From an uncultured Elusimicrobia bacterium (GTDB taxonomy: Bacteria > Elusimicrobiota > Elusimicrobia > UBA1565 > UBA9628): a stretch of 41,464 bases of DNA. The translations under genes were made by a program, and so were the position numbers. The notes beneath the pieces were generated by a model. It had not been told where the DNA came from. It did not search any database and saw nothing but the letters and a program-made list of their open reading frames with translations. The DNA lies in NCBI GenBank assembly GCA_964450975.1, contig CAYVFO010000003.1, forward strand, positions 1 through 41,464, written 5' to 3'. Of the stretch, positions 14,711-41,000 are shown piece after piece; within the stretch, counting starts at the first letter, position 1; the number at the start of each line of letters is the position of its first letter.

Positions 14711-14726
14711 CTCCTACCCTCCGCCC

Positions 14727-16015: not shown

Positions 16016-16107
16016 CGGCGGATACCTCCGGGATAGAATCCCTATAGGTATTATAACCCGCCCCGGGCCCCCCGCATGGGGCAAAAGACCCGGAACCGCC
16101 CGTGTAA

Positions 16108-21089: not shown

Positions 21090-22117
21090 CGCATCTCGAC
21101 GAGCGCCATGCGGCGCGCGACCCATCCGACGAGGACGGCGACCAGGATGTACACCGCGACCGCGCTGCGCAGCGGCAGCTGCGTGACGAGGAACGCGCAG
21201 AAGGAGAGGAACGCCGCCGCGCCGCCCGCCATGACGACGACGGTGTTGCGCGTAAAGCCCATCTTCTCGAGGCGCAGCGCGAAGTGATCCCTCGAGCCCA
21301 AAAACGGCGACTTGCCCTGGTTGAGGCGCAGCATCGAGACGAAGAGCGTGTCGAACGCGGGCACGAAGAGGATGAGCAGCGGCGCGAACGGGCCGGCGTC
21401 GTTGACGTCGGAGTAGCGAGTGCCGAGCGAGATGCCGGCGAGCAAAAAGCCGATCAACAGCGAGCCGCAGTCGCCCATGAAGATCTTGCGCGAGCGGGAC
21501 ATGTTCCACGGGATGAAGCCGATCGCGGCGCCCGCGAGCGCGGCGGAGGCGAAGTTCACGTAGAGCTCTTCCGACGGCAGCGAGATCATCAAAAAGCCGA
21601 GCGCCGCGACGGCGGCCTGGGAGGCCGAGAGGCCGTCCATGATGTCGACGATGTTGAAGGCGTTGGTGACGCCGACGACCCAGACCATCGTGATCGCCGC
21701 GGCGACGTACGCGGGATCAACGAAGCGCACGCGCAGGCCGAAGAGGATCAGGAGCAGCGCGGCCAGGATCTGCACGAGGAACTTGGGCTTATAGTCGAGG
21801 CCTTCGGGGCGCTTGAGGTCGTCGACGAGCCCGAGGACGAACACGAGCGTGCCGCCGAGGACGAGCGCGCGCAGGTTGTAGAGCGTGCCGGTCGGGAAGT
21901 TGGTGGTGAGGCGCAGCAGCAGCATCGTCGCCATGAAGCCCGCGTAGATCGCGACGCCGCCGAACACGGGCGTCGGCTCCTTGTGGGTCTTCACCGAGGA
22001 CGTCGGCGCGTCGAGCAGGCCGAAGCGCAGCGCGACCGAGCGCATCAGCGGCGTCGTGATGAACGACACCGCGGCCGCGCACGCGAAGGAGACGAAGAGG
22101 AGACCCGCCTGCGTCAC
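21086..22117 (-). CDS. polyprenyl-phosphate N-acetylhexosamine-1-phosphate transferase (WecA/MraY family, GT4)
   Basis: Multi-TM. GLVDDL and NAFNIVDIMDGL family motifs. GTG 22117 overlaps the upstream TGA (GTGA); track start 22147 is the alternative. Confidence 0.8.
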   Translation of the reverse strand: MTQAGLLFVSFACAAAVSFITTPLMRSVALRFGLLDAPTSSVKTHKEPTPVFGGVAIYAGFMATMLLLRLTTNFPTGTLYNLRALVLGGTLVFVLGLVDDLKRPEGLDYKPKFLVQILAALLLILFGLRVRFVDPAYVAAAITMVWVVGVTNAFNIVDIMDGLSASQAAVAALGFLMISLPSEELYVNFASAALAGAAIGFIPWNMSRSRKIFMGDCGSLLIGFLLAGISLGTRYSDVNDAGPFAPLLILFVPAFDTLFVSMLRLNQGKSPFLGSRDHFALRLEKMGFTRNTVVVMAGGAAAFLSFCAFLVTQLPLRSAVAVYILVAVLVGWVARRMALVEMR

Positions 22118-24090: not shown

Positions 24091-24839
24091 CAGCCCTTCT
24101 TCGGCTCGAAGAGGGCCAGCTTGACGATGCCGATGCGCTGGAGCACGTAGAGGGCCAGGCACCACAGCGCCTCGAGGCCGTACACGCACGAGCGCCGGAA
24201 GTTGATCGACGAGGCCTCGGCGAAGTAGCGCGCCGCGACGGGCACGTCGCCCATGCGCTGCTTCATGTACGCGGCCTGGATCAGGAACTGCTGGTCGAAG
24301 ACGAAGTCGTCGGAGTTGTTCTCCCACGGGATGGTCTCGAGGCACTTGCGCGAGTACGCGCGCAGGCCCGAGTGCCACTCGCCCAGGTTCTGCCCGGTCA
24401 CGATGTTCTCGAAGCCGGTCAGGAGGCGGTTGAAGACGTACTTGTAGACGGGCATGCCGCCGCCGAGCGCCTCCCAGCGCGTGCGGATGCGGTTGCCGCA
24501 CACCATGTCGGCGATGTCGTTGGTGATGAGGCCGGCCATGATCGGCACGAGCCGCGCGTCGTACTGGTAATCGGGGTGGACCATGACGACGACGTCGGCG
24601 CCCTTCTCGAGGGCGGCCTTGTAGCAGGTCTTCTGGTTGCCGCCGTAGCCCTTGTTCGTCGTGTGCTGGATGACCGTCAGGCCCAGCTTCTTCGCCAGCG
24701 CGACCGTGCCGTCCTTGGAGCAGTCGTCGACGAGGATGACCTCGTCCACCGACCCGGGCGGGATGTCCTTGATGGTCCGCTCGAGGGTCTTCTCCGCGTT
24801 GTAGGCGGGCATGACGACGATCGTCTTGGCTTTGGGCAT
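24090..24839 (-). CDS. family 2 glycosyltransferase (polyprenyl-phosphate sugar synthase-like)
   Basis: VVMPAYNAEKTL, LVDDCSKDGT, HPDYQYD. One C-terminal hydrophobic helix. TATAAT (24854 to 24849) lies 9 nt before the ATG. Confidence 0.8.
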   Translation of the reverse strand: MPKAKTIVVMPAYNAEKTLERTIKDIPPGSVDEVILVDDCSKDGTVALAKKLGLTVIQHTTNKGYGGNQKTCYKAALEKGADVVVMVHPDYQYDARLVPIMAGLITNDIADMVCGNRIRTRWEALGGGMPVYKYVFNRLLTGFENIVTGQNLGEWHSGLRAYSRKCLETIPWENNSDDFVFDQQFLIQAAYMKQRMGDVPVAARYFAEASSINFRRSCVYGLEALWCLALYVLQRIGIVKLALFEPKKG

Positions 24840-24879
24840 GAGAGGGGTATTATAGGAAAGACGACGGGGGTATGACGCC

Positions 24880-26538
24880 TTAGCGGCGCAGTTTCCAGAC
24901 CCGGAGCCAGGGGCCCCGGACCTTGCCCGCCTCGAACGGGAACTCGGCGACGAGGTCGGCTCCGGCCGCCAATTCGGAGAAGAACGAGGCGTACTCGCGG
25001 GTGCGGCGCGGGTCGGCGCCGATGGAAGACGTCACGACGTACTTCGCGCGCACGGCGCGCACCGGATCGAGGCCCGGGCGCACGTCGAGGAAGTCGCCGT
25101 CGGCCTGCGACGCCGCCACGTGGCGCGGCGCGGAGAAGAGCTCGACGGCCTGCCGTTTGACTCGGTAAATCTTCCAGCCGCCGCCGGGGTGGCGCTCGGC
25201 CATCGCCTTCCAGAGCTTGGCGCGCGGGGAGCCGGCGGCCGCGGTCCGGGCGGCCAGGTCCTCGCACTGCTCCTTCGACGGGATCGCGCGCGGCGTGGCG
25301 TGCGGCAGATCGAGCAGAATCGTTTCCCCCGCCGGGATGTTCTTCGTCATCCACTCCTCGGCCTGGGCGCGCGTGTCGGGCAGGCGCAGCTCGGCGAGCC
25401 ACGCCCACGACATCCAGATTCCGGGAGCGAGCGCCAAGACGGCGACGGTCAGGCGGCGCCACGGCTTCTGGCCGCCGAGAAGGTTGAGGCCCTCGCCCGC
25501 GAGAACGGCGAGCGCGGGGAAGACGCCGAGCATGTAGCGCAGCCACGCGCCGTCGAAGCTGTACGAGAGCACGACGCCGTACGCGATCACGGGCACGATC
25601 AGAAGAACGGCGCGCTTCGTCTTCTTCCAGAGCAGGACGCCCAAACCCAGCAGCGCGGCCGCGCCGGCGGGCGAGCCGTCGCCGCCGAACGTCCACATGT
25701 TGTGGAGCACGCGCACGGCGGTCTCCGCGGCGTCGTGCGGACGCAGGCGGCCTAAGTCGCCATAGTCGGCCTGGTCCGCGATGAAGCGCTGGAACTCGAG
25801 GAGCACGTACGGCGAGCCCGCGAAGAACGCGGCGGCGGCGAAAGCGGCGGCCTGCAGGAGCCACGTGAAGTACGGCGCGCCCCCCTCGCGCAGCGCCCAC
25901 GCGAGCGGGACGACGAGCGCGATCGGCGCGGCGGTGTACTGCGTCGAGCACGCGGCTCCGACGGCGGCCGCGGAGGCGTAGAGCCAGCCGCGCGCGCCGC
26001 CCGACTGGAACTTGAGCGCGCACGCCCACGCGAGCGAGGCGAAGAAAGTCATCGTCATGTCGGGCTTCGCGGTGTGCGCGAGGTCGACGAGCGTGGGCGC
26101 CACGGCCAGGATCATCGCGGCGTACGGCCAGCGGCTCTTGTCGTCGGTCCGCTCCCAGCGCAGCATGACCGCGACCGCGCCGAGCGAGGCGGCGGCCGAG
26201 ACGAGGCGCGCGATCAGGTAGAAGCCCGTCGGCGCGAAGCCGTAGAGCGCGGCGAAGTCGAGCGGGCTCTTGCGCAGGCCGAAGAAAGACCAGAAGCCGA
26301 ACCACAGGCCGTAGAGGCCGGCGAGAAGCGTCGGCCAGAGCGTCGGGTACTTGAAGGAGTGCGGCCTAAGCGAGCCCGAGCCGAACGAGACGGCCATGTT
26401 GACCAAGTGCGGCTCGTCGGCGTTGTAGGTGTGCGGCAGGCCGTACGACGCCGTCGAGAAGCGCAGCCACGCGGCGAAGAGCGCGAACGCGAGACCCGCG
26501 TAGAGCCAGGGCGAGACTTCGGCGGCCTTCTTACGCAC
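24880..26538 (-). CDS. GT-C-fold glycosyltransferase (ArnT/PMT-like)
   Basis: GTG start. N-terminal loop motif YNADEPHLVNMA. About 11 TM segments plus a soluble C-terminal domain. 8-nt overlap with the upstream gene. Confidence 0.6.
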   Translation of the reverse strand: MRKKAAEVSPWLYAGLAFALFAAWLRFSTASYGLPHTYNADEPHLVNMAVSFGSGSLRPHSFKYPTLWPTLLAGLYGLWFGFWSFFGLRKSPLDFAALYGFAPTGFYLIARLVSAAASLGAVAVMLRWERTDDKSRWPYAAMILAVAPTLVDLAHTAKPDMTMTFFASLAWACALKFQSGGARGWLYASAAAVGAACSTQYTAAPIALVVPLAWALREGGAPYFTWLLQAAAFAAAAFFAGSPYVLLEFQRFIADQADYGDLGRLRPHDAAETAVRVLHNMWTFGGDGSPAGAAALLGLGVLLWKKTKRAVLLIVPVIAYGVVLSYSFDGAWLRYMLGVFPALAVLAGEGLNLLGGQKPWRRLTVAVLALAPGIWMSWAWLAELRLPDTRAQAEEWMTKNIPAGETILLDLPHATPRAIPSKEQCEDLAARTAAAGSPRAKLWKAMAERHPGGGWKIYRVKRQAVELFSAPRHVAASQADGDFLDVRPGLDPVRAVRAKYVVTSSIGADPRRTREYASFFSELAAGADLVAEFPFEAGKVRGPWLRVWKLRR

Positions 26539-27727
26539 GCTTCCCCCGCAGATAGGGCATCGCGCCGGCGGCGGCGAGGAGGCAGAGGAACGGCTCGAGC
26601 GGGACGCGGTAGCGCAAAGTCGTCAGGAACACGGCGTGCGCCATCGTGTGGTAGATCAGGAGCGCCCAGACCGCGCCCCACGGCGCGCCCGTCTTGAGCG
26701 CGGCGCGGCCGCCCAGGATCGCGAAGGCGAAGAGGACGGTGAAGTAGAGCCCCATCACGACGCGCTGCCAGAGCGTGTAGGGATCGTAGAGCCACGGGCG
26801 CCAGTACAAGAACGCCTTGCCGACGACGATGCCGGCGGCCTGGAGCGGGTTCTCTTTGACGAGGTTCATCGTCTTGTCGAAGAAGTACGCGCCGATCTCG
26901 CGGTCGGAGATCCCGTTGGCCTTGGCCTCGGCGGCCATGTCGATCGGATGCGTGCGGACGGCGTCGCGATCGAGCGTGAAGCCCTCGTAGAGATTCCAGC
27001 CCATCTGGCCGGAGAGCGGCACGAGCTGGCCGTACTTCTGGTAATTGCGATACGTCCACAGCGCCGAGGGCAAAAACCAGCCCGGCGCCATGAGGAGAGA
27101 AAAGAGAACGGCGTGCTTGAAGCCCTTGGCCTTCCACAGGAAGAAGAACAGAATTCCCGGGAACGCTCCGAAGACCGACTTGCACGACGTCGCCAAGCCT
27201 CCGATCAAGCCGATCGCCAGATGCTTCGCGGACAACGGCTTGTTCCACAGGAGCACGACTCCGTGGAAGAACAACATCAACAAGAAGACGAAGAACGTCT
27301 CGGTCTGGAGCTGCGGAGTGAAGAAGATCACGGCGGGATCGACGGCCAGCCAAAGGGCCGACAGCCGAGCGGTTTTCTCGTCGACCAATCTCCCGGCGGC
27401 ACGGCGCAGAATCAGCGGCGTGATGCCGCCGAGCACGACGTTGAATATGAGAATGGGATACTGACTATCGGTCCGCAGCAAACCGAGAATGCCCGCGATG
27501 ACGAGCGTGAACAGCGGCGGGTGAGTCGCGTCGAACTCGGGCATCGGCAGGTAGCCGAGCCACGAGAGCGCGAGGTTGAAGTAGAGGTCGCGGCCGTAGG
27601 CGTCGCCCAGGTTCTTGGCCTGGAACACCGCGAGGATCGCCAGGCGCGCGGCGACGGCGATCGCGAGGACGGTCCAGTCGAAGCGGCGCGCGCTCCAGCG
27701 CGTCAGGAACGGAAGGCGGCCTTCCAT
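26531..27727 (-). CDS. GT-C-fold membrane glycosyltransferase-like protein
   Basis: 398 aa, polytopic, no large soluble domain. Its position in the glycosylation array supports the call. The family call is tentative. Confidence 0.5.
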   Translation of the reverse strand: MEGRLPFLTRWSARRFDWTVLAIAVAARLAILAVFQAKNLGDAYGRDLYFNLALSWLGYLPMPEFDATHPPLFTLVIAGILGLLRTDSQYPILIFNVVLGGITPLILRRAAGRLVDEKTARLSALWLAVDPAVIFFTPQLQTETFFVFLLMLFFHGVVLLWNKPLSAKHLAIGLIGGLATSCKSVFGAFPGILFFFLWKAKGFKHAVLFSLLMAPGWFLPSALWTYRNYQKYGQLVPLSGQMGWNLYEGFTLDRDAVRTHPIDMAAEAKANGISDREIGAYFFDKTMNLVKENPLQAAGIVVGKAFLYWRPWLYDPYTLWQRVVMGLYFTVLFAFAILGGRAALKTGAPWGAVWALLIYHTMAHAVFLTTLRYRVPLEPFLCLLAAAGAMPYLRGKRA

Positions 27728-28197: not shown

Positions 28198-30726
28198 ATG
28201 AGGTTCGCAGCCGCCCTACTCTCCCTTTCGCTGATCGGCACTTCGATGCCGCTCGACGCCTCCGCCCAGGTCGTGCGCGTGGCGGTCGGCGAGGCGGGCA
28301 TCGCGCCCGTCGCGCCCGTCGGCAATTCGATCTCCGGCTCCAACCTCGCTCCCAATCTCTCGATCGGCGCGGCCACGCTCACCGGCGGCCTCTCCGCGCC
28401 CTCGATCGCGCCGGCTCCGTCCGCGCTGAACGGCGCCGTTTCCGTCAAAGCCGTTCCTTCCGCTCTCGCACCCGTCCTTTCCGCCCCCTCCACCGAGCAG
28501 CCTGAAAAGCCCGAGACCCCGAAGCAGGCCGCGACGCCCGTCGCGCCGGCCAAGGCGAAGAAGTGGTGGAACACCCCGATCACCGAGCTCCTCGGCCTCA
28601 AGAAGCCCGCCGAGGCGAAGTCCGAGCAGAAGACCACGACCGCCGAGACGGCCTCCGTCGAAGGCGCGGTCCAGTTCGACGGCGTCTCCGAGAAGAAGGG
28701 CTCCGTCGAGGGCGCGCCCGTCGTCGAGGGCGACAACTCCAAGGCCTTCAAGGCCGGACAGAAGCTCGGCAAGTTCGTCCGCCAGCAGAACGTCAAGCGC
28801 AACGCCTCCGTCGACGAGTTCGGCGGCCCCCTCTCCGAGCCGATGACCTTCAAGCAGCGCGTGGGCTACGGCCTCTCGCGCGGCCTCCACATGATCGGCA
28901 TCGGCGCGATCATGACCGTCGGCCTCAAGCCACTGCTCGACGCGTGGGCCTGGCCCTCGATCATCAGCGACTCGGCGCTCCAGGGCTTCGGCCGCGTGGC
29001 GCTGCTCACAAAGTTCGGCCCCAACGAGATCGTCGAAGGGCTCGCCAACAACCCGATCGGCTTCATGGGCTTCTCTCTGCCGTGGGCGGTCACGATGGAG
29101 GAGATCTCCTTCCGCCTGCTCGGCTTCGGCCTGACCTTCCTCGTCATCGCCGCGGTCCGCCCGTTCTCGCGCTGGGTTTCGAAGATGATCAGCGGCCTGC
29201 CCGACGCGGCGGGCGCCGTGACCGGCGTGCAGCGCTTCCTCAAGCTCGGCGACGTGACCTCCCGCTACGCGTTCCCGATCGCGGCGATCTACTCCTCGTT
29301 CCAGTTCGCCGTCGCGCACTTCGGCGCGTGGGGCGTCGACCCGTACATCCTGCTCGTCAACGGCGTGCTCGGCGTGTTCCTCGCGCACACGGCCTACAAG
29401 TCGCGCAGCATCGTCGCGCCGATCGTCGCGCACCTCCTCTTCAACCTCTCCGTCTTCGCCGTGATCCTCGCCGGCATCGTCTGGTCGCCCGCGACCGCGC
29501 TGATGATCGCGATCGTCATGGGCCTGCTCGGAAGCGCCTCGCTGCTCTACTCGTGGCTGATGGCCCGCAAGATCAAGAAGTTCCAGATCAACGGCGCGAT
29601 GTCCATCGTGGCGCTCGCGCTCGCCGGCTCGCTGCTCACGGGCGTCAACCCGCCGAGCAAGGGCGACCTCGCCCGCGCGTTCAACTCCCACTCCACCCGC
29701 GGCGACATCACGCTCGTCCAGGAAGCCGTCAAGCCCGGCGCCGCCGTGGGCGCGGCCGTCTCGGCCGGCGGCGTCGCGCCCGACTCGACGAAGGCGGCCG
29801 TCGCCCCCGTGATCGAGCCGCGCGAAGTCATGACCGCGCGCGTGAAGGGCGCGGTCGTCAACGTCATCGTCAGGATGCCCCAGGGCATGGGCACCGGGTC
29901 CGGCTTCATCATCACGCCCGACGGCATGTTCATCTCCAACGCTCACGTCACGGGCACGCGCAAGCCCGGCGAGTTCGTCGAGGCCCGCATCCCCGGCGTC
30001 AACGGCATCGTCCGCGCCAAAGTCCTCGCCGCCAATCACGACAAAGACATCGCGATCCTCCAGCTCGCGCCGCGCATGGACGGCAAGCCGTGGCCGACGG
30101 TCCCGCTCGCGAAGAACCCGCCGCTCGAGGGCGAGCAGGTGACCGCGATGGGCTACCCGCGCGGCCTGCCCTTCACCGTGACGGCGGGCGTCATGTCCGG
30201 CCTCGAGGGCCGCGGCAACATGTACGTGCAGCACCTGCAGACCGACGCCTCGATCAACCCCGGCAACTCCGGCGGCCCGCTGTTCAACGCTGCGGGCGAA
30301 GTCGTCGGCATGAACACCCAGATCTTCACGATGAGCGGCGGCTCCGACGGCCTCGGCTTCTCGATCACCGCTCCCGCGATCCAGATGGCGATCGATCAGT
30401 ACCTCAAGACCGGCAACATGGCCACCGCGTCGCTCGGCATCATCGCCAACCTCTCGGACCCGAACAAGCCCGAGGCGGGCCTCGAGATCGAGTACGTGAA
30501 GTCCGGCTCCGCCGCCGAGGCCGCCGGCCTCAAGCGCGGCGACCTCATCGTCGCGGTCGGCGACATGCCGATCATGGAAGGCGGCCAGGAAGCCGCGCTC
30601 AAGATCGCCCTCGCCCTCTCCCGCCATACGCCCGGCGAGCAGGTCGACGTCACCGTGCTCCGCGCCGACGAGAAGCACGTCATCAAGGTGAAGGTCGACG
30701 CGAAAGTCACGGGCGAGTCGCGCTAG
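28198..30726 (+). CDS. fusion protein: signal peptide + Ala/Pro/Ser leader + CPBP (CAAX/Abi) intramembrane protease + HtrA-like serine protease + PDZ
   Basis: CPBP motifs MEEISFR (EExxxR), FAVAH (FxxxH), HLLFN (HxxxN). S1C triad contexts SNAHV, DKDIAIL, GNSGGPLF. PDZ-like tail GLKRGDLIVAVGD. TACACT (28185-28190) lies 7 nt before the ATG. The upstream 134 codons of the track ORF are rejected. Confidence 0.75.
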   Translation: MRFAAALLSLSLIGTSMPLDASAQVVRVAVGEAGIAPVAPVGNSISGSNLAPNLSIGAATLTGGLSAPSIAPAPSALNGAVSVKAVPSALAPVLSAPSTEQPEKPETPKQAATPVAPAKAKKWWNTPITELLGLKKPAEAKSEQKTTTAETASVEGAVQFDGVSEKKGSVEGAPVVEGDNSKAFKAGQKLGKFVRQQNVKRNASVDEFGGPLSEPMTFKQRVGYGLSRGLHMIGIGAIMTVGLKPLLDAWAWPSIISDSALQGFGRVALLTKFGPNEIVEGLANNPIGFMGFSLPWAVTMEEISFRLLGFGLTFLVIAAVRPFSRWVSKMISGLPDAAGAVTGVQRFLKLGDVTSRYAFPIAAIYSSFQFAVAHFGAWGVDPYILLVNGVLGVFLAHTAYKSRSIVAPIVAHLLFNLSVFAVILAGIVWSPATALMIAIVMGLLGSASLLYSWLMARKIKKFQINGAMSIVALALAGSLLTGVNPPSKGDLARAFNSHSTRGDITLVQEAVKPGAAVGAAVSAGGVAPDSTKAAVAPVIEPREVMTARVKGAVVNVIVRMPQGMGTGSGFIITPDGMFISNAHVTGTRKPGEFVEARIPGVNGIVRAKVLAANHDKDIAILQLAPRMDGKPWPTVPLAKNPPLEGEQVTAMGYPRGLPFTVTAGVMSGLEGRGNMYVQHLQTDASINPGNSGGPLFNAAGEVVGMNTQIFTMSGGSDGLGFSITAPAIQMAIDQYLKTGNMATASLGIIANLSDPNKPEAGLEIEYVKSGSAAEAAGLKRGDLIVAVGDMPIMEGGQEAALKIALALSRHTPGEQVDVTVLRADEKHVIKVKVDAKVTGESR

Positions 30727-30730
30727 CCCG

Positions 30731-31366
30731 TCAGCGCAGCGGTCTTCCGAACCCCCGAAACACCCAGCCCCGCGCGAACATCCGCGCCGCGTCGTGCTCG
30801 CGCGTGAGATAGAGGTCGTCGCGCGAGGACTCGACGACGCGATAGCTCCCGTCGGCCGCGACGTCGGTGACGAGCGCGATGTGCGAGATCCAGGCCTTCG
30901 GCGTCGCGCTCATGAAGACCACGTCGCCCGGCTTCGGCGGACCGCTCATGTCGAGGCAGCCGTTGTGGCGGCAGTACGTGTAGAGGTTGCGGGCACGCCG
31001 ATCGAAGAATGGATCGCCCGGCCGGCCGTCCTTCTTGCCGTAGCGGCCCGGGTTCGCGCGCCAATCGTCCTCCAGCAGCTTCTTGAGCGAGGTTCCCGCG
31101 TTGCGGTAGGCGATGCGCGGGACGTCCATGCAGACGATGAGGCCGCGCTTGCCGAAGAAGTCGCCGTAGAGCCCCTGGAGCGGATCGTAGAGGACGCCGA
31201 TGAGCTGCCGCGCCTCGGCGACGATCCGTCCGCGGTCGGCCTTCGGATTCCACGCGGCGGGCTCGGCGTCCGGCCCGCGATAGGCGTGGAAGCGCGCGAA
31301 CAGGACGAAGGCGGCGGCCCCGGCGGCCAGCAAGGCCGCCGAGGCCAATAGGACTCGCTTGAGCAT
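30731..31366 (-). CDS. DUF1287-like / NlpC-P60-superfamily exported protein
   Basis: N-terminal TM or signal LLASAALLAAGAAAFVLF. Cys context IVCMDVPRIAYR and His context WISHIALV with PGDVVF, resembling DUF1287 as I recall it. Confidence 0.5.
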   Translation of the reverse strand: MLKRVLLASAALLAAGAAAFVLFARFHAYRGPDAEPAAWNPKADRGRIVAEARQLIGVLYDPLQGLYGDFFGKRGLIVCMDVPRIAYRNAGTSLKKLLEDDWRANPGRYGKKDGRPGDPFFDRRARNLYTYCRHNGCLDMSGPPKPGDVVFMSATPKAWISHIALVTDVAADGSYRVVESSRDDLYLTREHDAARMFARGWVFRGFGRPLR

Positions 31367-31479
31367 GCCCCTCCCATACGCGGGAACCCCCGGAAACCTT
31401 ACGGGTCGAATCTAGGACCTTGGACCCTGTTTTGAAAACGCGGCCGGGGGCATTACTGAGGGAGACGCACGGAGGCCCG

Positions 31480-31812
31480 ATGCTCGACGACAATCTGCTG
31501 TTCCTGCTGGGAGTGGGAGCTGTCCCCATTTTGATGATGGCCGCGACGATCTACGCCCGCTCACTGCACCGACGGCCGGCGCTCGCCTGGGCGGGCCCGC
31601 GGCGCGGAGCGTCGCTCGTCATGCCGACCGCCGAGGAGACCGCGCGCAGCGTCCGCCGGTTTAAAGAGGCGGCGGAGCGCTCGGAGATGGTCGACTTCGT
31701 CTGGGAGCGCTACGCGCAGGGACGGGCGCTTCTGCTCGACGACATCCGCCGCGCGGCGGAGAGGAAAGGACGGAAGTCGAAGGCGAAGGGACCGCCGCCG
31801 AAGTGGATTTAG
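31480..31812 (+). CDS. small membrane-anchored hypothetical protein
   Basis: GGAGG lies 4 nt before ATG 31480. One TM (LLFLLGVGAVPILMMAATIY) and a basic C-terminus. Confidence 0.5.
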   Translation: MLDDNLLFLLGVGAVPILMMAATIYARSLHRRPALAWAGPRRGASLVMPTAEETARSVRRFKEAAERSEMVDFVWERYAQGRALLLDDIRRAAERKGRKSKAKGPPPKWI

Positions 31813-31813
31813 C

Positions 31814-32101
31814 CTAGGCGCCGAGCGCGTTCCACCAGTCGGCCAGCATCCGCTTCCGCTTCTTCGCGTCGTCCTGCGCGGTCAGGACGTCGAGGAAGGA
31901 TTGGGAAATCGCGTGATAGCCTTGGGCGCCCCCGCCCGCCACCCAGCAGTGCATGAGCAAAGCGCCGCACGACGCGCACTTGCCGACCGTGAACTCGACG
32001 CCCTCGGCGGAGCCGACGTCGGCCGAGCCGGACAGCTCTTCGGTCAGGCGTGCGAATTCCTGAGATGGACAGCAGTCCATGGAACTTTTAGGGCCGCTCA
32101 T
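31814..32101 (-). CDS. small Cys-rich hypothetical protein
   Basis: MDCCPSQ...GKCASCGALLMHCW contains six Cys. TACTCT (32114 to 32109) lies 7 nt before ATG 32101; ATG 32080 is the alternative. Track start 32182 lies in low-GC palindromic DNA and is doubted. Confidence 0.4.
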   Translation of the reverse strand: MSGPKSSMDCCPSQEFARLTEELSGSADVGSAEGVEFTVGKCASCGALLMHCWVAGGGAQGYHAISQSFLDVLTAQDDAKKRKRMLADWWNALGA

Positions 32102-32218
32102 TCGTATGAGAGTAGAAGAATTGCCGGCCCGCCGCCAGAGAAATTGACTAGCTCTAGAGTCAGTCAATGGCTTAGAAGCCATCGAACAAGCACCGGTGCG
32201 CGTGATTATCAGTAGTAG

Positions 32219-33589
32219 CTAGAGCGCGAAAGGCTTGCCGTCGGCGGGGTGGACGGTCTCGACGATGCCGTTCGGGCCGGCCTCGACCGAGAGCCAGTGG
32301 TGGAGCTTGCGCTTGCGCGTGGTCGAGGGCTCGGGGTAGAGAGGCGATCCGCCGCCGCCGGTGAGCACGTAGCGCACGCCGTCGCGCTCGACCGAGCCGA
32401 GCGCGTGGATATGGCCCATGTAGACGCGCTTCACTTTCTTCTTGGCCATCAGCGCCATGAACTCGGCGGCGCCTTCCTTGAAGCCGCCGGCGCCCTTCAA
32501 GGCGCCCCAGTCGGTGAACTCGCCGAGCGGGGCGGGCGGGATGTGCGTGAAGACGACCGTCGGAACGGATTCGTCGAGCACGGACGACAGCCACTCGAGC
32601 TGCGGCTTCGTCACGCGGTTCTCCGAGGAATCCAGCACGACGAAGCGCCATCCGGCGCGCTCGAAGACGTAATTGGGCGAGCCGAACGTCGCCTTATACA
32701 CGTTCGCGTTCGTGACGCCGTGCGGCTTGTGGCGGTCGTGGTTGCCGAGCGCTGTGAGATAGGGGACCTTCACGCCCGCGAGGAACCAGCCCTTGATGAA
32801 GGACCAATACTGGGCGATCGTGCCGCGGCTGACCATGTCGCCCATCTGGAAGATGAAGTCGGGCGCGGTCGTGTTGGCGCGCGCGAGCAGGCGCCAGAAG
32901 ACGCCGGGCTGGTTGAACAGCTTGCGCGAGAACCAGAAGCGGCCGGGCTCGCTGTCGCCGATCACCGCGAACTTGAAGCTCTCCCCCTTCGCTCGCGGGG
33001 TTTCGGCGAGCTTCGAGAGTTGGCGTTCGGTGCGCAGGGGCAGCGCCTTCTTCTGCAGCACGCCGAGCGCGCCGGGCGCGCGGTGCTGCGCGGGCTTGAC
33101 GACGATGTGGCCGCGGCCGACCGCCTCCTCGATCGTCGGGACCGTGATCATCGGCGCGTGCGCCATGCGCGGCACGCGGCCGTCCCACATGTCGCGCTCG
33201 ACGGTCAGGATCGAATCGGGGGCGCCGACGAGGCCCGTGTCGAGGTCGGCGTCGGGCTTATAAGGCAGCCCGGTGTGGACGCTCACGCCGGTCTGACGGC
33301 TGCCGTGGATGATCCACGGCTTGCCGGTCTTCTCGGCCAAGGCCTTCACGGCCTCGATCTGCTGAGGCGTGACGCCGGGACCGGGCACGCCGAGCACTTG
33401 CGTCCCCGACAGCAAAGACGGCGCGAGCTTGGGCGCGTCGGCGCTCGGAGCGGAGAGGACGCTCGCGGAGAGCGCGGGAGCGGTCAGGCCCGGCGCGGAA
33501 GGGATAGCGCTGCGCGGGACGACGACCTGGGAAGAGGCCGCGCCGGCGACCCAGAGCAGAAGGATCGCCGGCGCGGTCACGACGGTCAT
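32219..33589 (-). CDS. secreted calcineurin-like metallophosphoesterase with N-terminal extra domain
   Basis: Signal peptide plus A/P/S leader. MPE motifs VIGDSEPG, QMGDMVSRG, LGNHD, FTHIP, MGHIHA. The ATG lies 1 nt after the moxR stop. Confidence 0.75.
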   Translation of the reverse strand: MTVVTAPAILLLWVAGAASSQVVVPRSAIPSAPGLTAPALSASVLSAPSADAPKLAPSLLSGTQVLGVPGPGVTPQQIEAVKALAEKTGKPWIIHGSRQTGVSVHTGLPYKPDADLDTGLVGAPDSILTVERDMWDGRVPRMAHAPMITVPTIEEAVGRGHIVVKPAQHRAPGALGVLQKKALPLRTERQLSKLAETPRAKGESFKFAVIGDSEPGRFWFSRKLFNQPGVFWRLLARANTTAPDFIFQMGDMVSRGTIAQYWSFIKGWFLAGVKVPYLTALGNHDRHKPHGVTNANVYKATFGSPNYVFERAGWRFVVLDSSENRVTKPQLEWLSSVLDESVPTVVFTHIPPAPLGEFTDWGALKGAGGFKEGAAEFMALMAKKKVKRVYMGHIHALGSVERDGVRYVLTGGGGSPLYPEPSTTRKRKLHHWLSVEAGPNGIVETVHPADGKPFAL

Positions 33590-33590
33590 G

Positions 33591-35084
33591 TTATTTGACG
33601 GGCTGCTTGGCCGGAGGAACCAGGCGGGCGCCGGGGTTCGGAACGCCGACCTTCTTGAGGATCTGGTCGACGACCTGGTCGGTGGTCAGGTTGTTCGCCT
33701 GGTAGCCGAGCGTGACGCGGTGGCGCAGGATGCGGTGAGCCACGTCGCGGACGTCCTGAGGCGAGACCCACGCGCGGCCGTTGAGGAGCGCGTTGATCTT
33801 GGCGGCCTTGAGGAGGAAGATGGCCGCGCGCGGCGAGGCGCCGGACTCGATCGCGTCCTTCGCGTCGATGCCGTACTTCGCCGGGTTGTGCGTCGCCTCG
33901 ATGATGTTGACGATGTAGTCGTCGATCGCGGGATCGACGTGGACCTGCTCGGCGATCTTGCGGATCGCGACGAGCTCATCAAGGGAGGTGATCTTGCCGG
34001 CCTTCGGCTGGCCCTCTTTCTTGGAGAACCGGTTCATGATCTCCTTGAGCTGCTCCATCGTCGGGCGGGGCACGAGGACCTTGTACATGAAGCGGTCCTG
34101 CTGGGCCTCGGGCAGGCGGTAGACGCCTTCCTGCTCGATCGGGTTCTGCGTCGCGAGCACCATGAACGGCTTCGGCAGCTCGAGCGTCTTGCGCGCGATC
34201 GTGACGCGGCCCTCGGCCATGGCCTCGAGGAGCGCGGCCTGCGTCTTCGGCATCATGCGGTTGATCTCGTCGACGAGCAGGATGTTCGTGAACACCGGGC
34301 CCTGGACGAGCTTGAACGCCTTCTCGCCGGTCGCCGGGTCTTCCTGCACGATCTCGGAGCCGAGGATGTCGGACGGGAGCTTGTCGGGCGTGCCCTGCAC
34401 GCGCTCGAACTGGCCCTCGACCGCGTCGGAGAACGCCTTGACGGTCTGCGTCTTGGCGACGCCGGGGACGCCTTCGAGGAGGACGTGCTCGGAGGCGATC
34501 ATCGCGGTGATGATCGAGTCGATCATGTCTTCCTGGCCGACGATGACCTTCGCGATCTCGGCGCGGATGCCCTTCACGACCGCGGCCTTCTCGACGATCG
34601 TCTGCGCGAGCGCCGCGTCGCCGCCCGCGTACGGGGAGGCGGCGGCGTCGACGGAAGGAGCCGAGGCGATCAGCGACTCGCCGGTGAGCGCGGCTTCGAG
34701 CGCGTTGCCCGCGCCGTGGACCTGCCCCGTCGGAGCCTTGCCCAAGTTCGGCATCGCGGCGAGAGCGTTCGTCGCGTTCGTCATCCGCTCGGCGGCGGAG
34801 GCCGCGGAGGTCACGGGCTTGAGGGCCGCCGGAACCGCGGCGGCCGCGGCCGGGATGACCGAGGGAGCCGGGAGCAGCGAGGGCGTCAGGGCCGAGCCCA
34901 GGCCCAGCGTCGGAGCCGCGAGCGCCGGCGCGCCGAGCGTGACCGAGGGCGCCGCGATGCCCGCGCCGAGCGCGGGAGCGACGGTGCCCGCCGGCACGCG
35001 CCCGCGCAGCTGCGCGGAAGCGGGCATCGGCGCGGCGATCATCGCCGCCAGTCCGAGATTGATGATGCTGGGAACTTTCTTCAT
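33591..35084 (-). CDS. MoxR-family AAA+ ATPase with about 170-aa N-terminal signal-like Ala/Pro-rich extension
   Basis: Last 497 codons of track ORF 33591..38246(-). Walker A EGVPGVAKTQ, Walker B ILLVDEINR, and VIVGQEDMI typical of MoxR. AGGAG lies 5 nt before ATG 35084. Confidence 0.85.
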   Translation of the reverse strand: MKKVPSIINLGLAAMIAAPMPASAQLRGRVPAGTVAPALGAGIAAPSVTLGAPALAAPTLGLGSALTPSLLPAPSVIPAAAAAVPAALKPVTSAASAAERMTNATNALAAMPNLGKAPTGQVHGAGNALEAALTGESLIASAPSVDAAASPYAGGDAALAQTIVEKAAVVKGIRAEIAKVIVGQEDMIDSIITAMIASEHVLLEGVPGVAKTQTVKAFSDAVEGQFERVQGTPDKLPSDILGSEIVQEDPATGEKAFKLVQGPVFTNILLVDEINRMMPKTQAALLEAMAEGRVTIARKTLELPKPFMVLATQNPIEQEGVYRLPEAQQDRFMYKVLVPRPTMEQLKEIMNRFSKKEGQPKAGKITSLDELVAIRKIAEQVHVDPAIDDYIVNIIEATHNPAKYGIDAKDAIESGASPRAAIFLLKAAKINALLNGRAWVSPQDVRDVAHRILRHRVTLGYQANNLTTDQVVDQILKKVGVPNPGARLVPPAKQPVK

Positions 35085-35092
35085 AGACGCTC

Positions 35093-38000
35093 CTAAGGGT
35101 TCTTCGGCTGCTTGGCTTTCGGCTGCAGCGCCAGCTCGAGGCTTTCGAGCGGGTCGCCTTCGGTGGAAATCTTGATCGGGCGCAGGCGCGCGGCCTCGAA
35201 CGCCGTCTCGATCATCTGCTCGCGGCGGGAGATCAAAGCGCCCTGCTCGCGGCGGACTTCGGAAGAGGAGGTGTCGAGCACGCGGGTCGTCCCCGTCTCG
35301 GCGTCCTCGACGGGCAGGAGGCCCACGTCGGGGAGCGGCTGGAGCTCCGCGGGATCGCTCACGCGGATCGGGCGCACGTCGTGGCGCGCGGCGAGCGAGC
35401 CGAGCGCGTCCTTGAAGTCGGCGGAGATGAAGTCGGAGATGACGGCGACCATCGAGCGCGAGACGAGGACCTTGCCCGCGGTGTCGAGGCCGGGCTTGAG
35501 GTCGGTCGTCTGGCCCTGCGCCTCGGCGTTCAGGATCGCCTCGATGAGCTGCATCGCGTGCTTCTGGCCGCCCTTGGGCGGGATCACGGTCTCGACGCGG
35601 TCGGAGACGAGGATCAGGCCGACGCGCACGTTGTGGCGCGTCGCCGCGAGCGCGATCACCGCGGCCGCGTCCTGGATCGCCGCGCGCTTCTCGACGCCCG
35701 TGGTGCCGACGCGGCCGGACTTGGAGACGTCGACGACGAGCATGAGCGGCATGTCGCGCTCGAGCTCGAACTTCTTCGCGTAGAGCTCGTCCTTCTTCGC
35801 GGAGGTCTTCCAGTCGATCTCGCGGGCGTCCTCGTTCTCGTACGGGCGGGCCTCGGCGAACTCGGTGCCGCCGGCGCCGATGAAGCGCGAGCGGAACGAG
35901 CCGCCGGAGACGGCGGTCGCGAGGCGGCGCGCGGAGAGCTCGATGCGGCGGTGGCGCGCGAGCGTCTTGGCCTCGATCGTGTCGCGGCCGGCCTCGGCGG
36001 CGAGGCGGGCCTCCTCCTCCTTGGCCTGCGCCTTGGAGAGCATGCGCCAGACGACGAACGCGGCGCCGATGCCGACGGCGGCGAAGAGCAGGAGCGGAAC
36101 GGCGCCGAGCACGGGCAGCGCGGCGAGCATGAGCGGCGAGAAGGCGTGCTGCGTCTTCTTGCCCTCGTGAGCGGCGAGCGCGCGGTCGGCGGCGCGGAGC
36201 GCCTCGTCGATCGTCTCGGCCTCGGCGTCGGTCAGGTCGCGCGGCGTCGTGCCGTCGCCCTCCCAGCCCTTGCCCGACTTCTTGATGCCCTCGAGCCACG
36301 TCTTGAGCTTCACGACGTCGGCCTTGGAGTATTTCTCGCGGTACTCGCCGGAGCCGTAGCCGGCGCCGTTGGAGTCCATGAGGCCCATCGCGCGCAGCTT
36401 CTCGGTGAACGTCGAGCCCGGGAACACGGTGTAGCCCTTCTGCAGGCGGCTGTTGAGGAGCTCGGCGGAGATCTCCGCGGGATCGTCGCCGGCGGCGACG
36501 CCGGAGGCGGCCGCGATGCGCTCGTAAAGAGGAAGGAGGGTCTTGGCCTTCTCGAACGCCTTGCGCTGCTCGGCGGTGGGCTTCTTGACCTTGGCCATCG
36601 CCGAGTCGGAGGCCGCGCGCAGCTCGCGGTAGTGGCGAAGCGTGAACGGCTCGCGCCAGGAGTCGTCGTCCTCGCGCGCGCCCGAGTTGACGTTCGCGTC
36701 CTTGAGCTTGTCGAGGACCTTCTCGAGCTCCTCGCCGACTTCGGTCGCGCCCTTCGCCGCGCGCTCGGACGCGGCCTCGGCCATGAGCTTGCCGGCGGGG
36801 GTCTTGAGGCCGGCGAGCAAGGCCTCGAGCTGCGGCTTCTCCGAGGGCGTGCCGGCGACGGCCTCGGACACGAGGTCGAGGACCTGAGCGACGTCGGCGG
36901 AGTCGTGACCGGGACGCGCCTTGAGGATTTCGATGAGGACGTCCTGCGCGCGGACGGCGAAGCCCGCGTCCTTGGCGCGCGCCTTGAGCGCGACCGTCAG
37001 GCGCACGAGCGCGAGCGACTCCTGACCGGGGCGCATCACCTCGGTCTTGAGGTCGGCTCCCTTGGTCGCGGCGGGGCCGCCGAAGCGCTTGGCCAAGATC
37101 TCGTCGAAGCGGTCGATGGCGCCGGTGAGGAAGACCTTCTCGTTCCACGTGAGGTCGCGCGGCGAGGAGCCGAGCGACTTGCCGCCGGCGGCGGTCTTCA
37201 CGAGCCACGCGCGGATGGCCTCGAGCTCGGCCTTCGTGTAGGTCTGCCGGTAGTCGGAGAGGTTGTTGCCCGCGCCGGGCATGAGCTTCGCGGCGCGCAG
37301 CGCCTCGTTGAACTCGGAGGCGGTGAACAGGCGGTAGCCGGCGAGCAGGACGACGTTGGCCTCGTCGGCCGCGATCTCGCCGACGGAATCGCCGGCGGGC
37401 GCGCCCGCGAGGGCGGCCAGAGCCTTGTAAGAGGAGATCGTCTTGCGCGCGGTCTCGGCGGCGGCCTTCATCTCGGGCGTGAGCTTGCCCGCGGCGCGCG
37501 CCTGGTTTTCGGCTTCCGTGATGCCGTCGATGATCGACTGGTAATGGCGCAGCTTGAGGTCGGAGCGCCAGGCGTACTCGGACTCGCGCGCGCCCACGAG
37601 CAGGTTCGCGGTCTTGAGGCCGGCGAACGCCGACTCGGCCTTCTCGGCCGCGGCCTTCAGACCCTCGCCGGCGCGCTCGCGCGCGGCGGGAGCGAAAGCG
37701 GCGCCGTTCGGCGTCTTGAGGACGGACGTGAGCGCGTCGACCGCGACGGACTCGGCCGGCTTGCCCTTCACCGAGGCGAGGATCTGCTTGAGGAGGGCGT
37801 TCGCGTCGGCGGCGTCGAAGCCGGGGCGGCCGACCTGCGCGAAGAGCTTGGTCTCGACGTCGAGCGCGGCGGAGTCGCCCTTCGCCGTGAGCTCGCGCGA
37901 GAGCTTCGCGATGAGGAGCGAGTCCTCGTCGGAGGCGTCGAGCGCCTTCTCGGACGGGAAGCGAGCGGCGCGGACGGCCTCGACCTGCTCGATCGCGCCG

Positions 38001-41000
38001 GAAAGCCAGATCTTCTCGGCCCACGTGAGCGGGCGGGTCTTGCCGTCGGACTCCCAGCCCTTGTTCTCCTTGGCCATCACGACGAGCGCGTCGCGCAGAG
38101 TCGCGAGCTGGGCGGCGTCGAGCGACTCGGCGTAGGCGAGGCGCGAGGAGTAGTCGCCCATCGCGGGCGCCAAGCCGAGCGTCCGCATCGCCTTCATGAA
38201 GTGCTGGCCGCTGAACGTGCTCTGGCCGGACTTGATCGTCTCCCACAGATCGTCGGCGGCGAGCTCGGGAGCCGAGCCGCCCTGCATCATGCCGGCCTTC
38301 GCGCCCGCCTCGAGCGACTTCTCGACGGTCGCCATCGCGCGGTCCATGAGCTCGCGCGTCGCGGCGTTCTCCTTCGTCGCCGGCTCGGCCTTCGGGCCGC
38401 CCATCTCCTCGAGCGCCTTCGCGAACGCCTGCAGATGCCCGAGCTTGTAGAGCTCGCGGTAGTTCTTGGTCGTGTAGGAGCCGCCGCGGCCGTAGTAGCC
38501 GCCGTGGCCGTGGTCGTCGTAGTAGTCGCCGTAGCCGCCGCCGCTCTGCGAATCGGGCAGGACGACGCCGTCGGCGATCAGCCGCTCGTGGAGGCCGGGG
38601 ATCGCGGCCTCGGCTTCCTTGATCTGCTCGGTGATCGCCTGCGTGATCAGGTAGCGCACGCCGCCCTGCAGAGGCGCCGGCGCGTTCCCGTCGCCCTGCA
38701 TCTTGTCGCCGATGTTGAGGAGCATGACGACCATCGACGGCGGGCCCTTCACTTCCTGGTCGGGAGGCGTCGCCTCCCAGATCGGCTTGCGCAGCGCGTC
38801 GTAGGCGCGCGCGATCGCCAGAGACTTGTCGAGGAAGATCTTCGCCTTCGCGAGGTCGCCGTCCTGGATCGCCGCGTCGCCGAGGCGGCGGAAGACGAAC
38901 GAGGCGGACCAGAGCTGGAGCGCGGGGTCGTTGACGTGCTTGTCCTGGACCGCGGTTATCCCGTCGAAGAACTTCTTGCCGCCGTCTCGGGAGAGGTGCG
39001 AGTAGAGAACGCCGCCCGCCATCTGCTGGACCTGGCGGTTCGGGCTCTTGAGCACGCGGAAGAGCTGGACGATCGTCTTCTCGTTGCCGGACTCGACGCC
39101 GAGCACGACGAGCTTGACGAGCAGCATCGCCGCGCCCTCGTCGGAGCGGGACGCCGCGATGATCTGGTCCATCGACGCCCAGAGCATGTCGTTGTCGCGC
39201 TCGATGAGCGAGCGCAGCATGATCGCCTCGCCCTGCGCGGTCAGCGGCAGGATGCCGGCGCGGCGGACGATCGCGACGAGCACGTTGTCGGCCTTGGGAT
39301 CGGGCGACTCGCGCAGGATCTGCAGCGCGCGCTCGAGGTCGCCGCCGGCGGTGCGCGGCGACTCGTGCCAGCGCTTGAGCGCGGGAAGGACCTGCTCGGG
39401 GATGCGCGCGTCCACGTAGCGGTCGGTGAAGATGACGAGGTCCTCGGCGTAGAAGAGGCGCATCGAGGCCTCGGCGGCCTGCCGCTGCTGCGCCTGGAAC
39501 TGGATCGTGCCGATCGAGGACACGCCGGTCAGCGCGATCATCAGGGAGAGGACGCCGACAGTGCCCCAGCGCTTGAGGCGCGCGCCGAGTCCCGGAGCCT
39601 GCGGAGCCTTCAGCGACGGGATCTCATAAGGAACGGGCTTCGACGCCGCGATCGCCTCGAGCGCTTCCACGCGCAGGACCGCGTCGGAGTGCGAGAGCCA
39701 GCCGATGTCGGCGCGGCGCGCGAGGATGCGCTCGGTGACCGGCGTCAGCGGCTCCATGCGCGTCTTGCCGGCGCGGCGGAGCGCGGCCAGGATCTTGTCC
39801 ATCGTCTCGGGCGAGGCGCCGGAGAGGTACGCGGCGGTCAGGAGCTCGCGCCAGAGGGCCTCGTCGCGCGCGGCCCAGTCGATCATCGTCTCGCGCAGCG
39901 GCTCCTTGGCCTGCTGCCACTTCGCGACGAAGTGCGAGAGGCGGCGCTCGTCGGCCTCGCGCAGGTCGTAGAGGTGGACGAGGTCCTTCGCGACGCCCTT
40001 CGGCACCGCGCCGTTCCAGCGCTGCCACGTCTCGGTGATCCGGCGCGTGAGCGCGCCGCCCGTCCAGTGGTCGTAGGCGAGGTAGCCGGCGGCGAGCGTG
40101 GCGAGGATCGCGAACGGAAGAATCTGGGGCCACGCGCCGAGCGGGATCAAGGCGAGGCCGAGGAAGGAGGCGGGGCCGCCGAGCGAGCCCGAGCCCTTGC
40201 CCTTCTCGTCCTTCGCGGCCTTCTTCTCGCCCGCGTCGTTCTGCGGGCGGCGGAGGAAGGACTTGCCCTTGAGAATCGAGTCGAGCAGCAGGAGCATCAG
40301 CGCGGGCCAGAGGAGGTAGACGCCGATCGGGCGCGGCGACTTGATCGTGTCGCCCTGCTGGCCCTTCTCGAGCGCCGAGACGTCCTTGAGGATCGCGTCG
40401 ATCGAGGTCTTGCCGCCGGAGCGGAAGTACGCGCCGCCGGTGCGCTCGGCGAGCTTGCGCAGCGGCCCCTCGACGAGGCGCGTCGTCGCGGGCTGGCCCG
40501 TCTTCTCGTCGATCTGATACTCGAAGCCCTTCCCGTCCTCGGTCGGGATCTTGATCTTCGTGCCGGCGGGATCGCCGACGCCGATGACGTAGACCGTGAC
40601 CTTGTGCTCGAGCGCGGCCGCGATCGCCTTCTCGACGTCGGCCTCGGGCACGTCGCCGTCGGAGATGACGATCATCAGGCGCTGGCGGTCGCCGAGCTTC
40701 TTGAGGACCTCGAAGTGCTCGGCGGCGTACTTGACGCCGTCGCCCAAGTTCGAGCCCGCGCCGATGTCGCGCGTCTCGACTTCGGGGCGGTTGATCTTGA
40801 ACTCGAAATTCGAGTACTCGGCGGAGACGGGCGAGGCGGTGCGGGCCTTGCCCGCGAAGAAGACGAGGCCGACGCGGTCGGTGCCCTGCAGGCGCGAGAT
40901 GAACTCGTTGAGCTCCTTCCGCGTGCGCTCCATGCGGCCGTCCTCGGCGTACACCATCGAGGTCGAGCCGTCGACGGTGACGACGATGTCCTTGCCGCCG

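Follow-up and report, generated by a model that had tools for sequence, protein, structure and literature searches.

This study concerns four genes in a 41,464-nucleotide (nt) stretch of DNA from an uncultured Elusimicrobia bacterium (contig CAYVFO010000003.1, positions 1 to 41,464 of the forward strand; "the window" hereafter means this whole stretch) and the similar N-terminal leaders with which their products begin. The window has a GC content of 68-70%, and its nearest protein relatives are named Elusimicrobiota or Elusimicrobia. The four genes, designated G1 to G4 (Table 1), encode a fused CPBP-HtrA-PDZ protease, a phosphoesterase, a MoxR ATPase and part of a giant Bacteroides aerotolerance (Bat) protein, respectively. 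G4, G3 and G2, in that order, make up a tight operon, in which 8 nt lie between the G4 stop codon and the G3 ATG, with AGGAG 5 nt before that ATG, and a single nucleotide lies between the G3 stop codon and the G2 ATG. The N-terminus of G4 falls beyond the window end, and its leader is known from orthologues of approximately 3,000-3,270 amino acids (aa), which have the same module at their start. An initial annotation, made from the DNA alone, had placed three leader-bearing starts at 28198 (+), 33589 (-) and 35084 (-), and both these starts and the peptide strings quoted with them proved exact. All three open reading frames (ORFs) have a signal-like head ending A-S-[AS]-Q, as had been described, followed by a nearly charge-free tract rich in Ala, Pro, Ser, Leu, Gly and Val; for brevity, this tract is called the A/P/S spacer, and the Phe-Asp-Gly motif that follows it in G1 is called FDG.

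Table 1. Genes of the locus and parts of their leaders (residue numbers refer to the encoded protein; pLDDT, predicted local distance difference test)
Feature	Positions	Strand	Description	Basis
G1	28198-30726	+	842 aa; CPBP/Rce1-like membrane protease + trypsin-like HtrA + PDZ (Rce1-like/CPBP 288-417, Trypsin_2 567-705, PDZ 761-833)	Pfam
G1 head	28198-28266	+	residues 1-23, signal-peptide-like MRFAAALLSLSLIGTSMPLDASA, then Q24, R27	
G1 spacer	28267-28491	+	residues 24-98, A/P/S/G/L-rich, 51-aa uncharged run	
G1 Lys-rich stretch	28492-28707	+	amphipathic helix KKWWNTPITELLGLKK and FDG motif EGAVQFDGVSEKK; FDG = residues 160-162	
G1 passenger	28708-30726	+	K/R-rich juxtamembrane stretch, ~7 transmembrane segments with CPBP/Rce1-like motifs, trypsin-like HtrA, PDZ	Pfam, NCBIfam, hydropathy
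G2	32219-33589	-	456 aa; calcineurin-like phosphoesterase (Metallophos 205-396)	Pfam
G2 head	33530-33589	-	residues 1-20, MTVVTAPAILLLWVAGAASS, then Q21, R26	
G2 spacer	33404-33529	-	residues 21-62, A/P/S/L-rich, predicted disordered	AlphaFold pLDDT ~42 for 18-59
G2 passenger	32219-33400	-	folded N-domain + metallophosphoesterase	Pfam, AlphaFold, Foldseek
G3	33591-35084	-	497 aa; MoxR ATPase (AAA_3 200-333 + lid)	Pfam
G3 head	35013-35084	-	residues 1-24, MKKVPSIINLGLAAMIAAPMPASA, then Q25, R27, R29; upstream AGGAG	
G3 spacer	34800-35012	-	residues 25-95, 59-aa uncharged run, predicted disordered	AlphaFold pLDDT ~40
G3 helix-loop-helix	34677-34799	-	residues 96-136, AAERMTNATNALAAMPNLGKA...GAGNALEAALTGE; MoxR form of FDG motif	
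G3 passenger	33591-34607	-	MoxR AAA+ core, Walker A (GVPGVAKT) and Walker B (LLVDEINR) intact	Pfam, invariant columns
G4	35093-41464	-	C-terminal two thirds of giant fused Bat protein: BatB-like VWA, helical repeats, DUF58	

As judged from the DNA, the leaders of G1, G2 and G3 are evidently translated and kept in orthologues. The periodicity of GC content at third codon positions (GC3) extends to each of the three proposed starts. Among 12 MoxR orthologues, the leader has a GC3 of 0.83-0.96, similar to that of the core, and none of the 12 leaders contains an in-frame stop despite insertions and deletions. Approximately 50 Elusimicrobiota MoxR orthologues of 450-530 aa retain the whole extension, down to 44% identity, while the MoxR proteins of other phyla have 317-332 aa and comprise the core only. 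The initial annotation had named starts downstream of the leaders as grounds for rejecting its proposal, and this is not what is found, with coding-like GC3, the conservation of the heads at the extreme N-terminal end of more than 50 sequences and the AGGAG before the ATG at 35084 all favoring the upstream starts. The internal Met101 of MoxR as the sole start was ruled out; it is preceded by a weak GAG compared to AGGAG at 35084, and the internal Met is Ile or missing in several orthologues. Three public entries (P0031, P0032 and P0035) begin MoxR at an internal Met before the helix motif and lose the leader; in the contig behind P0035 (L010), the full ORF is present in the DNA with its head intact (L010:10001-11467).

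The resemblance among the leaders goes beyond composition. The three window tracts contain 7 copies of 'APS' and 9 of 'AP.L' compared to 0.8 and 0.9, respectively, in composition-preserving shuffles (approximately nine-fold in each case), although these counts are indicative only because the motifs were picked after the data had been seen. GC3-based gene calling in the window and 20 Elusimicrobiota loci surrounding MoxR orthologues gave 162 genes, which were scanned for uncharged, A/P/S-rich runs of at least 30 aa. All 39 runs found were N-terminal behind signal-like heads and limited to four syntenic families, namely the giant protein, MoxR, the phosphoesterase and the CPBP fusion. No such leader is carried by the other exported window proteins, recognized by a signal peptide or lipobox (e.g., 2005-3096, 3840-4376, 4303-5166, 13606-14295, 15515-16084 and 16108-16587); for the last of these, the initial annotation had stated the same. 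Profile comparisons with hhalign gave scores of 39-50 between leaders of different families versus 5-16 for reversed or column-shuffled controls, and 25-33 versus 6-11 when the heads were left out. The leaders are therefore not random low complexity, a point on which the initial annotation was borne out, but homologous copies of one module, with a homology that is real but distant. A tandem-repeat search of the tracts returned just short DNA repeats of 2-3 copies, rejecting recent repeat expansions as their source. In Pfam and NCBIfam, no model spans the leaders and only the catalytic domains are matched, and literature searches returned nothing on signal-bearing MoxR or on such leaders in Elusimicrobia. 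A transmembrane (TM)-anchored protein elsewhere in the window (14691-15467, +) has a short uncharged tract of similar composition (NAPAAAPGLSSAPGAPAAPANPSLPPL) after its anchor, with neither an A-x-A-Q head nor FDG.

The module has three parts. The head consists of 1-4 Lys/Arg residues, 12-16 hydrophobic aa, usually an [A/S/G]-Pro break, a small-x-small pattern and an almost invariant Gln, after which the first Arg or Lys occurs at +4 to +6 in all four families. An [S/A]-Pro break is seen in the MoxR, giant-protein and CPBP heads, and the phosphoesterase head has no Pro; the G1 head is kept in the CPBP-fusion orthologues of six loci (L002, L005, L010, L011, L016 and L033). The spacer has a median longest uncharged run of 37 aa in the giant protein, 60 in the CPBP fusion, 64 in MoxR and 23 in the phosphoesterase. 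In MoxR, its amino-acid divergence is approximately three times that of the core (pN 0.34 versus 0.11), with pN/pS uninformative because synonymous sites are saturated, and the tracts orthologous to the G1 spacer differ in both length and sequence. The third part, found in MoxR, the CPBP fusion and the giant protein, is a short amphipathic helix followed by a hydrophobic-acidic-small motif, which reads 'APEKL..G.MFDGS.AK' in the giant protein, 'AK..AD..FDGA..K' in the CPBP fusion and 'AALAAMPNLdKAS....GAGtALEaALTGE' (the LE.ALTGE form) in MoxR, with a '..RFDG...' variant in one MoxR clade (P0043, P0046 and P0055). The Lys-rich/FDG stretch of G1 is paired by hhalign with the helix-motif region of MoxR, where helices 97-109 and 119-134 of G3 are confidently predicted (AlphaFold pLDDT 84-91) and orthologues keep the motif down to 44% identity. 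The FDG motif is absent from G2 and present in many of its homologues.

Deeper relatives separate the conserved parts of the module from the conspicuous one. In the L033 clade, whose MoxR is approximately 50% identical, both MoxR and the CPBP fusion have a charged spacer, while the head, an 'IRVTG' stretch and 'VVFDGDK' are kept. An exhaustive search with G2 recovered 3,412 phosphoesterase relatives; among the 94 that have an N-terminal region, a signal-like head is seen in 74 and an F[DE][GAK] match in 26. The spacers of P0133 and P0140 have a different composition, that of P0140 being 130 aa of Leu/Thr/Pro/Gln at a locus of 56% GC, and in P0150, P0151 and P0161 the spacer is absent, with FDG directly behind the head ('...LLLAVPARA|FDGSSP' in P0151). 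Additionally, neither the giant-protein leaders (z = 0.1) nor the distant MoxR leaders (z = 1.1) show enrichment of 'APS'. A fifth carrier family is represented by a 258-aa protein with a C-terminal, antitoxin-type Xre_MbcA_ParS_C domain (L035:40-816, -), which has the same head, an LxP-rich spacer and 'AAAVFDGLAH'; no RES toxin gene adjoins it at that locus. Because the A/P/S spacer is charged, altered or absent in deeper relatives in which the head and FDG-type motif persist, these two constitute the core of the module, with the Arg/Lys at +4 to +6 also among its conserved parts. The spacer is dispensable, and its 'xAPS' look is the local make-up of an insertable spacer in a high-GC sub-clade. 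The idea of a shared module thus stands insofar as the leaders are positionally fixed and homologous across families, while the reiterated (L/I/S)xAPS and LAPxL units, which the initial annotation had taken for its functional signature, do not serve as one. Tagged phosphoesterases elsewhere do not adjoin Bat genes. A hidden Markov model (HMM) of the FDG motif found no further carrier families in approximately 460 kb of related loci; a database search with the giant-protein leader alignment yielded nothing useful, with 8,000 candidates swamped by low-complexity words, and one with the non-repetitive region behind that leader yielded three fragments only.

The three leader-bearing proteins had been regarded as unrelated enzymes, a description that does not fit their setting, as all three are neighbors in a conserved Elusimicrobiota cluster whose giant fourth protein shares the leader. 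The order giant-MoxR-phosphoesterase with a convergent G1 recurs in five loci (L002, L005, L010, L011 and L016), three of which (L005, L010 and L016) continue with ArsC-like and PMT_2 genes. In L033, the giant-MoxR pair and the convergent protease are kept and the phosphoesterase is absent; overall, linkage of the CPBP-HtrA fusion is seen in 7 loci. One locus, L004 (CALRXP010000026.1), is labelled 'Candidatus Endomicrobium trichonymphae', a doubtful label for a locus of 68% GC that is very like the high-GC groundwater-type loci. The giant orthologues (e.g., L002:444-9992) comprise, in order, the leader, a second signal peptide, an Ig-like region, BatA_N with VWA, BatC-like TPR, a second VWA, helical repeats and DUF58. 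In G4, the tandem helical repeats of approximately 290 aa (~1008-1255 versus 1304-1559) are 33% identical (E = 9e-34) and are followed by a third, partial copy. Pfam matches include AAA_3 (9.7e-56), DUF58 (9e-58) and VWA, as well as BatA_N in the giant orthologues. The BatA and BatB models of NCBIfam match G4 and its BatA, BatB and BatC models match the L002 orthologue, while BatD has no Pfam match in the cluster. With MoxR AAA_3, an adjoining DUF58 and BatA/BatB-type VWA domains, the genes constitute, by these domain matches, a Bat-type MoxR-VWA system. Like described MoxR-DUF58-BatA/B/C/D operons, the cluster contains MoxR AAA_3, DUF58, BatA_N with VWA and BatC-like TPR. However, the present cluster combines all non-ATPase parts in one protein of ~3,000-3,270 aa that contains helical repeats of ~290 aa, has the reverse gene order and includes a phosphoesterase and a CPBP-HtrA fusion as additional members; each of its products bears a leader, which described Bat proteins do not. 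The cluster represents a fused form of the Bat-type MoxR-VWA system, and the leader is best classed as a variant of an N-terminal signal or anchor plus linker.

On balance, the shared module is probably an inner-membrane targeting and tethering device with a flexible spacer. The head would hold the protein at the cytoplasmic membrane, or bring it there, acting as an anchor instead of directing export; the spacer (0 to ~130 aa) would act as a disordered leash and the FDG-type element as the conserved docking part, and the module would serve the components of a fused Bat-type MoxR-VWA machine of the envelope along with a small number of further enzymes. We infer the membrane targeting, the membrane side and the docking role, and on the basis of passenger domains and charge patterns we lean towards a cytoplasmic passenger side, at least for MoxR and the giant protein. 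Behind the module, 12 of 13 giant orthologues have a complete second signal peptide of n-h-c layout, often ending A-x-A-Q. The 15 residues preceding this signal carry +3 to +5 charges, with 0-1 acidic residues among them, and the charge after it is ~0. Because basic residues precede this second signal, the positive-inside rule would place the FDG end of the giant leader in the cytoplasm, and the second signal would be redundant if the first head had already exported the protein. In addition, a divergent MoxR (P0066, equivalent to L032:10001-11866) has a Lys/Arg-rich leader and, as an insertion that separates this leader from the AAA+ core, a two-TM hairpin of ~42 aa flanked by Arg/Lys. MoxR retains all its ATPase motifs, whereas ATP is not available in the periplasm, and Xre_MbcA_ParS_C is a cytoplasm-type, antitoxin-type domain. 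The order of CPBP motifs in G1 seems to fit an Rce1-like N-in topology.

A possible structural precedent for such an anchor is the re-entrant membrane helix of PglC, in which Lys-Arg and a hydrophobic helix with a Ser-Pro break span ~27 aa (PMC6133551). The heads likewise begin with Lys/Arg and a hydrophobic helix broken at [S/A]-Pro, and the paradox of an ATPase with a signal-like N-terminus would be resolved because a head of the PglC type would keep both ends of the segment cytoplasmic, an arrangement that the basic residue after the head would also fit. They differ from PglC in that their hydrophobic part has 12-16 aa and the return arm is polar, and the phosphoesterase head has no Pro. 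Type I, N-out and TonB-like topologies were rejected on the distribution of charges. A TonB/TolA-type spacer was also rejected; the head falls short of TM length and contains an A-x-A site, charges are missing from the spacer and the passengers are not TonB_C-like.

Several observations weigh against a tether. The head has every feature of a cleavable signal of the Sec/signal peptidase I (SPase I) type with a conserved -3/-1 pattern, and an uncleaved anchor would not obviously need the A-x-A pattern, which is left unexplained. Signal-like heads are the rule among the phosphoesterase homologues with an N-terminal region (the 74 of 94 above), and the closest Foldseek structural matches of G2 include secreted purple acid phosphatases, so that ordinary export is plausible for this family. 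No TM or re-entrant segment of ~27-30 aa, as in PglC, is present, and the head is shorter than that precedent. The leaders have a net charge close to zero, which gives no indication of the side, and the charge bias around the first TM segment of G1 is weak, with its juxtamembrane charges pointing only weakly to the cytoplasmic side. Finally, family-specific leader HMMs score the leaders of other families at only 10-33 bits.

Of the alternatives to a tether, classical secretion fares best, although we regard it as unlikely. A cleaved Sec signal would deliver leader and passenger to the periplasm or surface, where the A/P/S tract would be an extended linker, possibly O-glycosylated, with a tethering or sorting role, much as the initial annotation had proposed for the leaders. 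By inspection, the n-h-c layout with small residues at -3/-1 is present in G1-G3 and in more than 70 orthologous heads, A-x-A|Q occurs in all families, and the early mature region is uncharged and compatible with export. Most phosphoesterase homologues have signal-like heads, in some cases with FDG where cleavage is predicted. The periplasm is the location of HtrA/PDZ and Bat VWA domains; in the BatB-like BB0173 of Borrelia, the VWFA domain faces the periplasm (PMC5700661). The leaders resemble Sec/SPase I signals with disordered linkers in their basic n-region, short h-region, helix breaker, small -3/-1 residues and low-complexity tract. However, one passenger is an AAA+ ATPase whose Walker motifs are intact and which would sit without ATP, and another is an antitoxin-type domain. 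One carrier, the giant protein, has a full signal peptide of its own with a strongly basic n-region behind the leader, and in P0066 the Lys/Arg-rich leader is followed by a basic-flanked TM hairpin. The Gln at +1, the basic residue at +4 to +6 and FDG exceed what signal peptidase needs. An extracytoplasmic site suits the passenger of the phosphoesterase family and does not suit MoxR, the giant protein or P0066. Because of the AAA+ passenger, the second signal peptide of the giant protein and the P0066 variant, plain secretion is contradicted as a general reading.

O-glycosylation of the exported tract would add to the secretion reading. Ala/Pro/Ser-rich regions are O-glycosylated in the targets of Neisseria PglL/PglO and of actinobacterial Pmt. 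As in those regions, Ser/Thr residues lie here in Ala/Pro-rich, low-complexity, N-proximal tracts behind signal-like heads, and PMT-like GT-C genes are close by: three PMT/PMT_2-type GT-C genes, a GT2 gene and a GT4 gene adjoin G1, and the ArsC-PMT_2-PMT_2 part of this neighborhood is also found beside the G1 orthologue in L005 and L010. However, the leaders lack conserved Ser/Thr acceptors, the tract is poorly conserved (pN 0.34), and relatives have a charged or otherwise different tract or none; the genes examined include no identified PglL/Wzy_C-type enzyme. The PMT genes are a lead only.

It is also possible, though doubtful, that the module is an undescribed N-terminal tag of Elusimicrobiota that assembles MoxR, the giant Bat/VWA protein, the CPBP-HtrA protease and clients at one membrane site, with FDG read by a VWA metal ion-dependent adhesion site (MIDAS) or by the CPBP protease. 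The head would then be a monotopic, Sec-mimicking anchor of the cytoplasmic face, or else the tails would be exported with the passengers inside.

A narrower proposal, which we consider improbable, is a sorting tag of head and FDG that is recognized and processed by the co-located CPBP-HtrA-PDZ fusion (G1) in the manner of exosortase and myxosortase C-terminal tags. Linkage between the CPBP-trypsin-PDZ fusion and the giant-MoxR pair persists as MoxR identity falls from 97% to ~50%, several tagged proteins occur per genome and five carrier families are known, and CPBP proteases can be sorting enzymes (PMC11980579; bioRxiv 10.1101/2023.06.07.544157). As with exosortase/PEP-CTERM and myxosortase/MYXO-CTERM, a short motif lies by a hydrophobic segment on unrelated proteins and a CPBP-family protease is linked to it. 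However, the module is N-terminal and not a C-terminal tripartite domain, it has neither an invariant Cys nor an Arg-rich tail, its processing is putative, G1 itself carries the tag, and tagged phosphoesterases occur without such a protease within 10 kb.

A tethered ligand appears more improbable still. The FDG or LE-A motif would bind the MIDAS in the giant protein's VWA and DUF58 domains and so recruit MoxR, the protease and clients, with the spacer as a leash. The motif resembles the acidic motifs of integrin ligands (LDV, IDS and IET), the DxSxS motifs of G4 are intact at residues 109 (VWA) and 1856 (DUF58), and every cluster component but G2 bears the motif. Nevertheless, the MoxR motif lies in a confidently predicted helix and not in a free linear peptide, and carriers occur outside Bat clusters. 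Tag processing by CPBP-HtrA and MIDAS binding may both be elaborations compatible with the membrane tether favored here. An artefact, whether background low complexity at high GC or true starts downstream of the leaders, is largely refuted and has very little probability left: internal-Met database entries and Ala/Pro-rich tracts elsewhere in this GC-rich window would suggest it, but the start-site, GC3, stop-codon and head-conservation evidence, the far lower shuffled controls and the confinement of the runs to four families all contradict it.

MoxR-VWA/Bat systems are widespread and their mechanism is obscure; in the system described here, every component, the ATPase included, carries one module. 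Standard annotation would read the leader as a secretion signal and mislocalize an ATP-dependent chaperone, and some pipelines silently trim the leader away. Should the module prove to be a shared anchor or docking tag, it would offer a direct view of how a Bat-type envelope machine is put together and would also reveal which proteins are served by it as clients. More generally, a signal-peptide-like N-terminus with a low-complexity tract behind it need not be an export signal, and the repeats that catch the eye may carry the least information in a leader.

Several neighboring features were also recorded. The glycosyltransferase (GT) cluster adjoining G1 (21086-27727, -) comprises GT4 (21086-22147), GT2 (24090-24839) and three PMT/PMT_2-like GT-C membrane proteins (22114-24189, 24880-26538 and 26531-27727). 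Of the PMT/PMT_2 matches, that of 26531-27727 is above the Pfam cut-off (45.5 bits) and the other two are below it, with lipid A or glycans equally possible as targets. In G2, a PDB sequence search gave no match, and Foldseek matches include Rv0805, GpdQ and purple acid phosphatases. Its top Foldseek matches leave unaccounted for the folded N-domain (residues 64-170; window 33080-33400, -), which has a pLDDT of ~90, no assigned function and the motif 'HGSRQTG...DLD.G'; P0180 has two tandem copies of this domain without a phosphoesterase. Two small ORFs lie between G1 and G2 (31420-31812, +, and 31814-32182, -), one with a TM segment and the other Cys-rich (CC..., C..C); neither has a Pfam match, and tblastn found none in related loci. 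Elsewhere in the window, mutS-mutL (8385-12802, +) and queE-queC (17002-18389, -) are housekeeping genes, and their presence confirms the chromosomal context.

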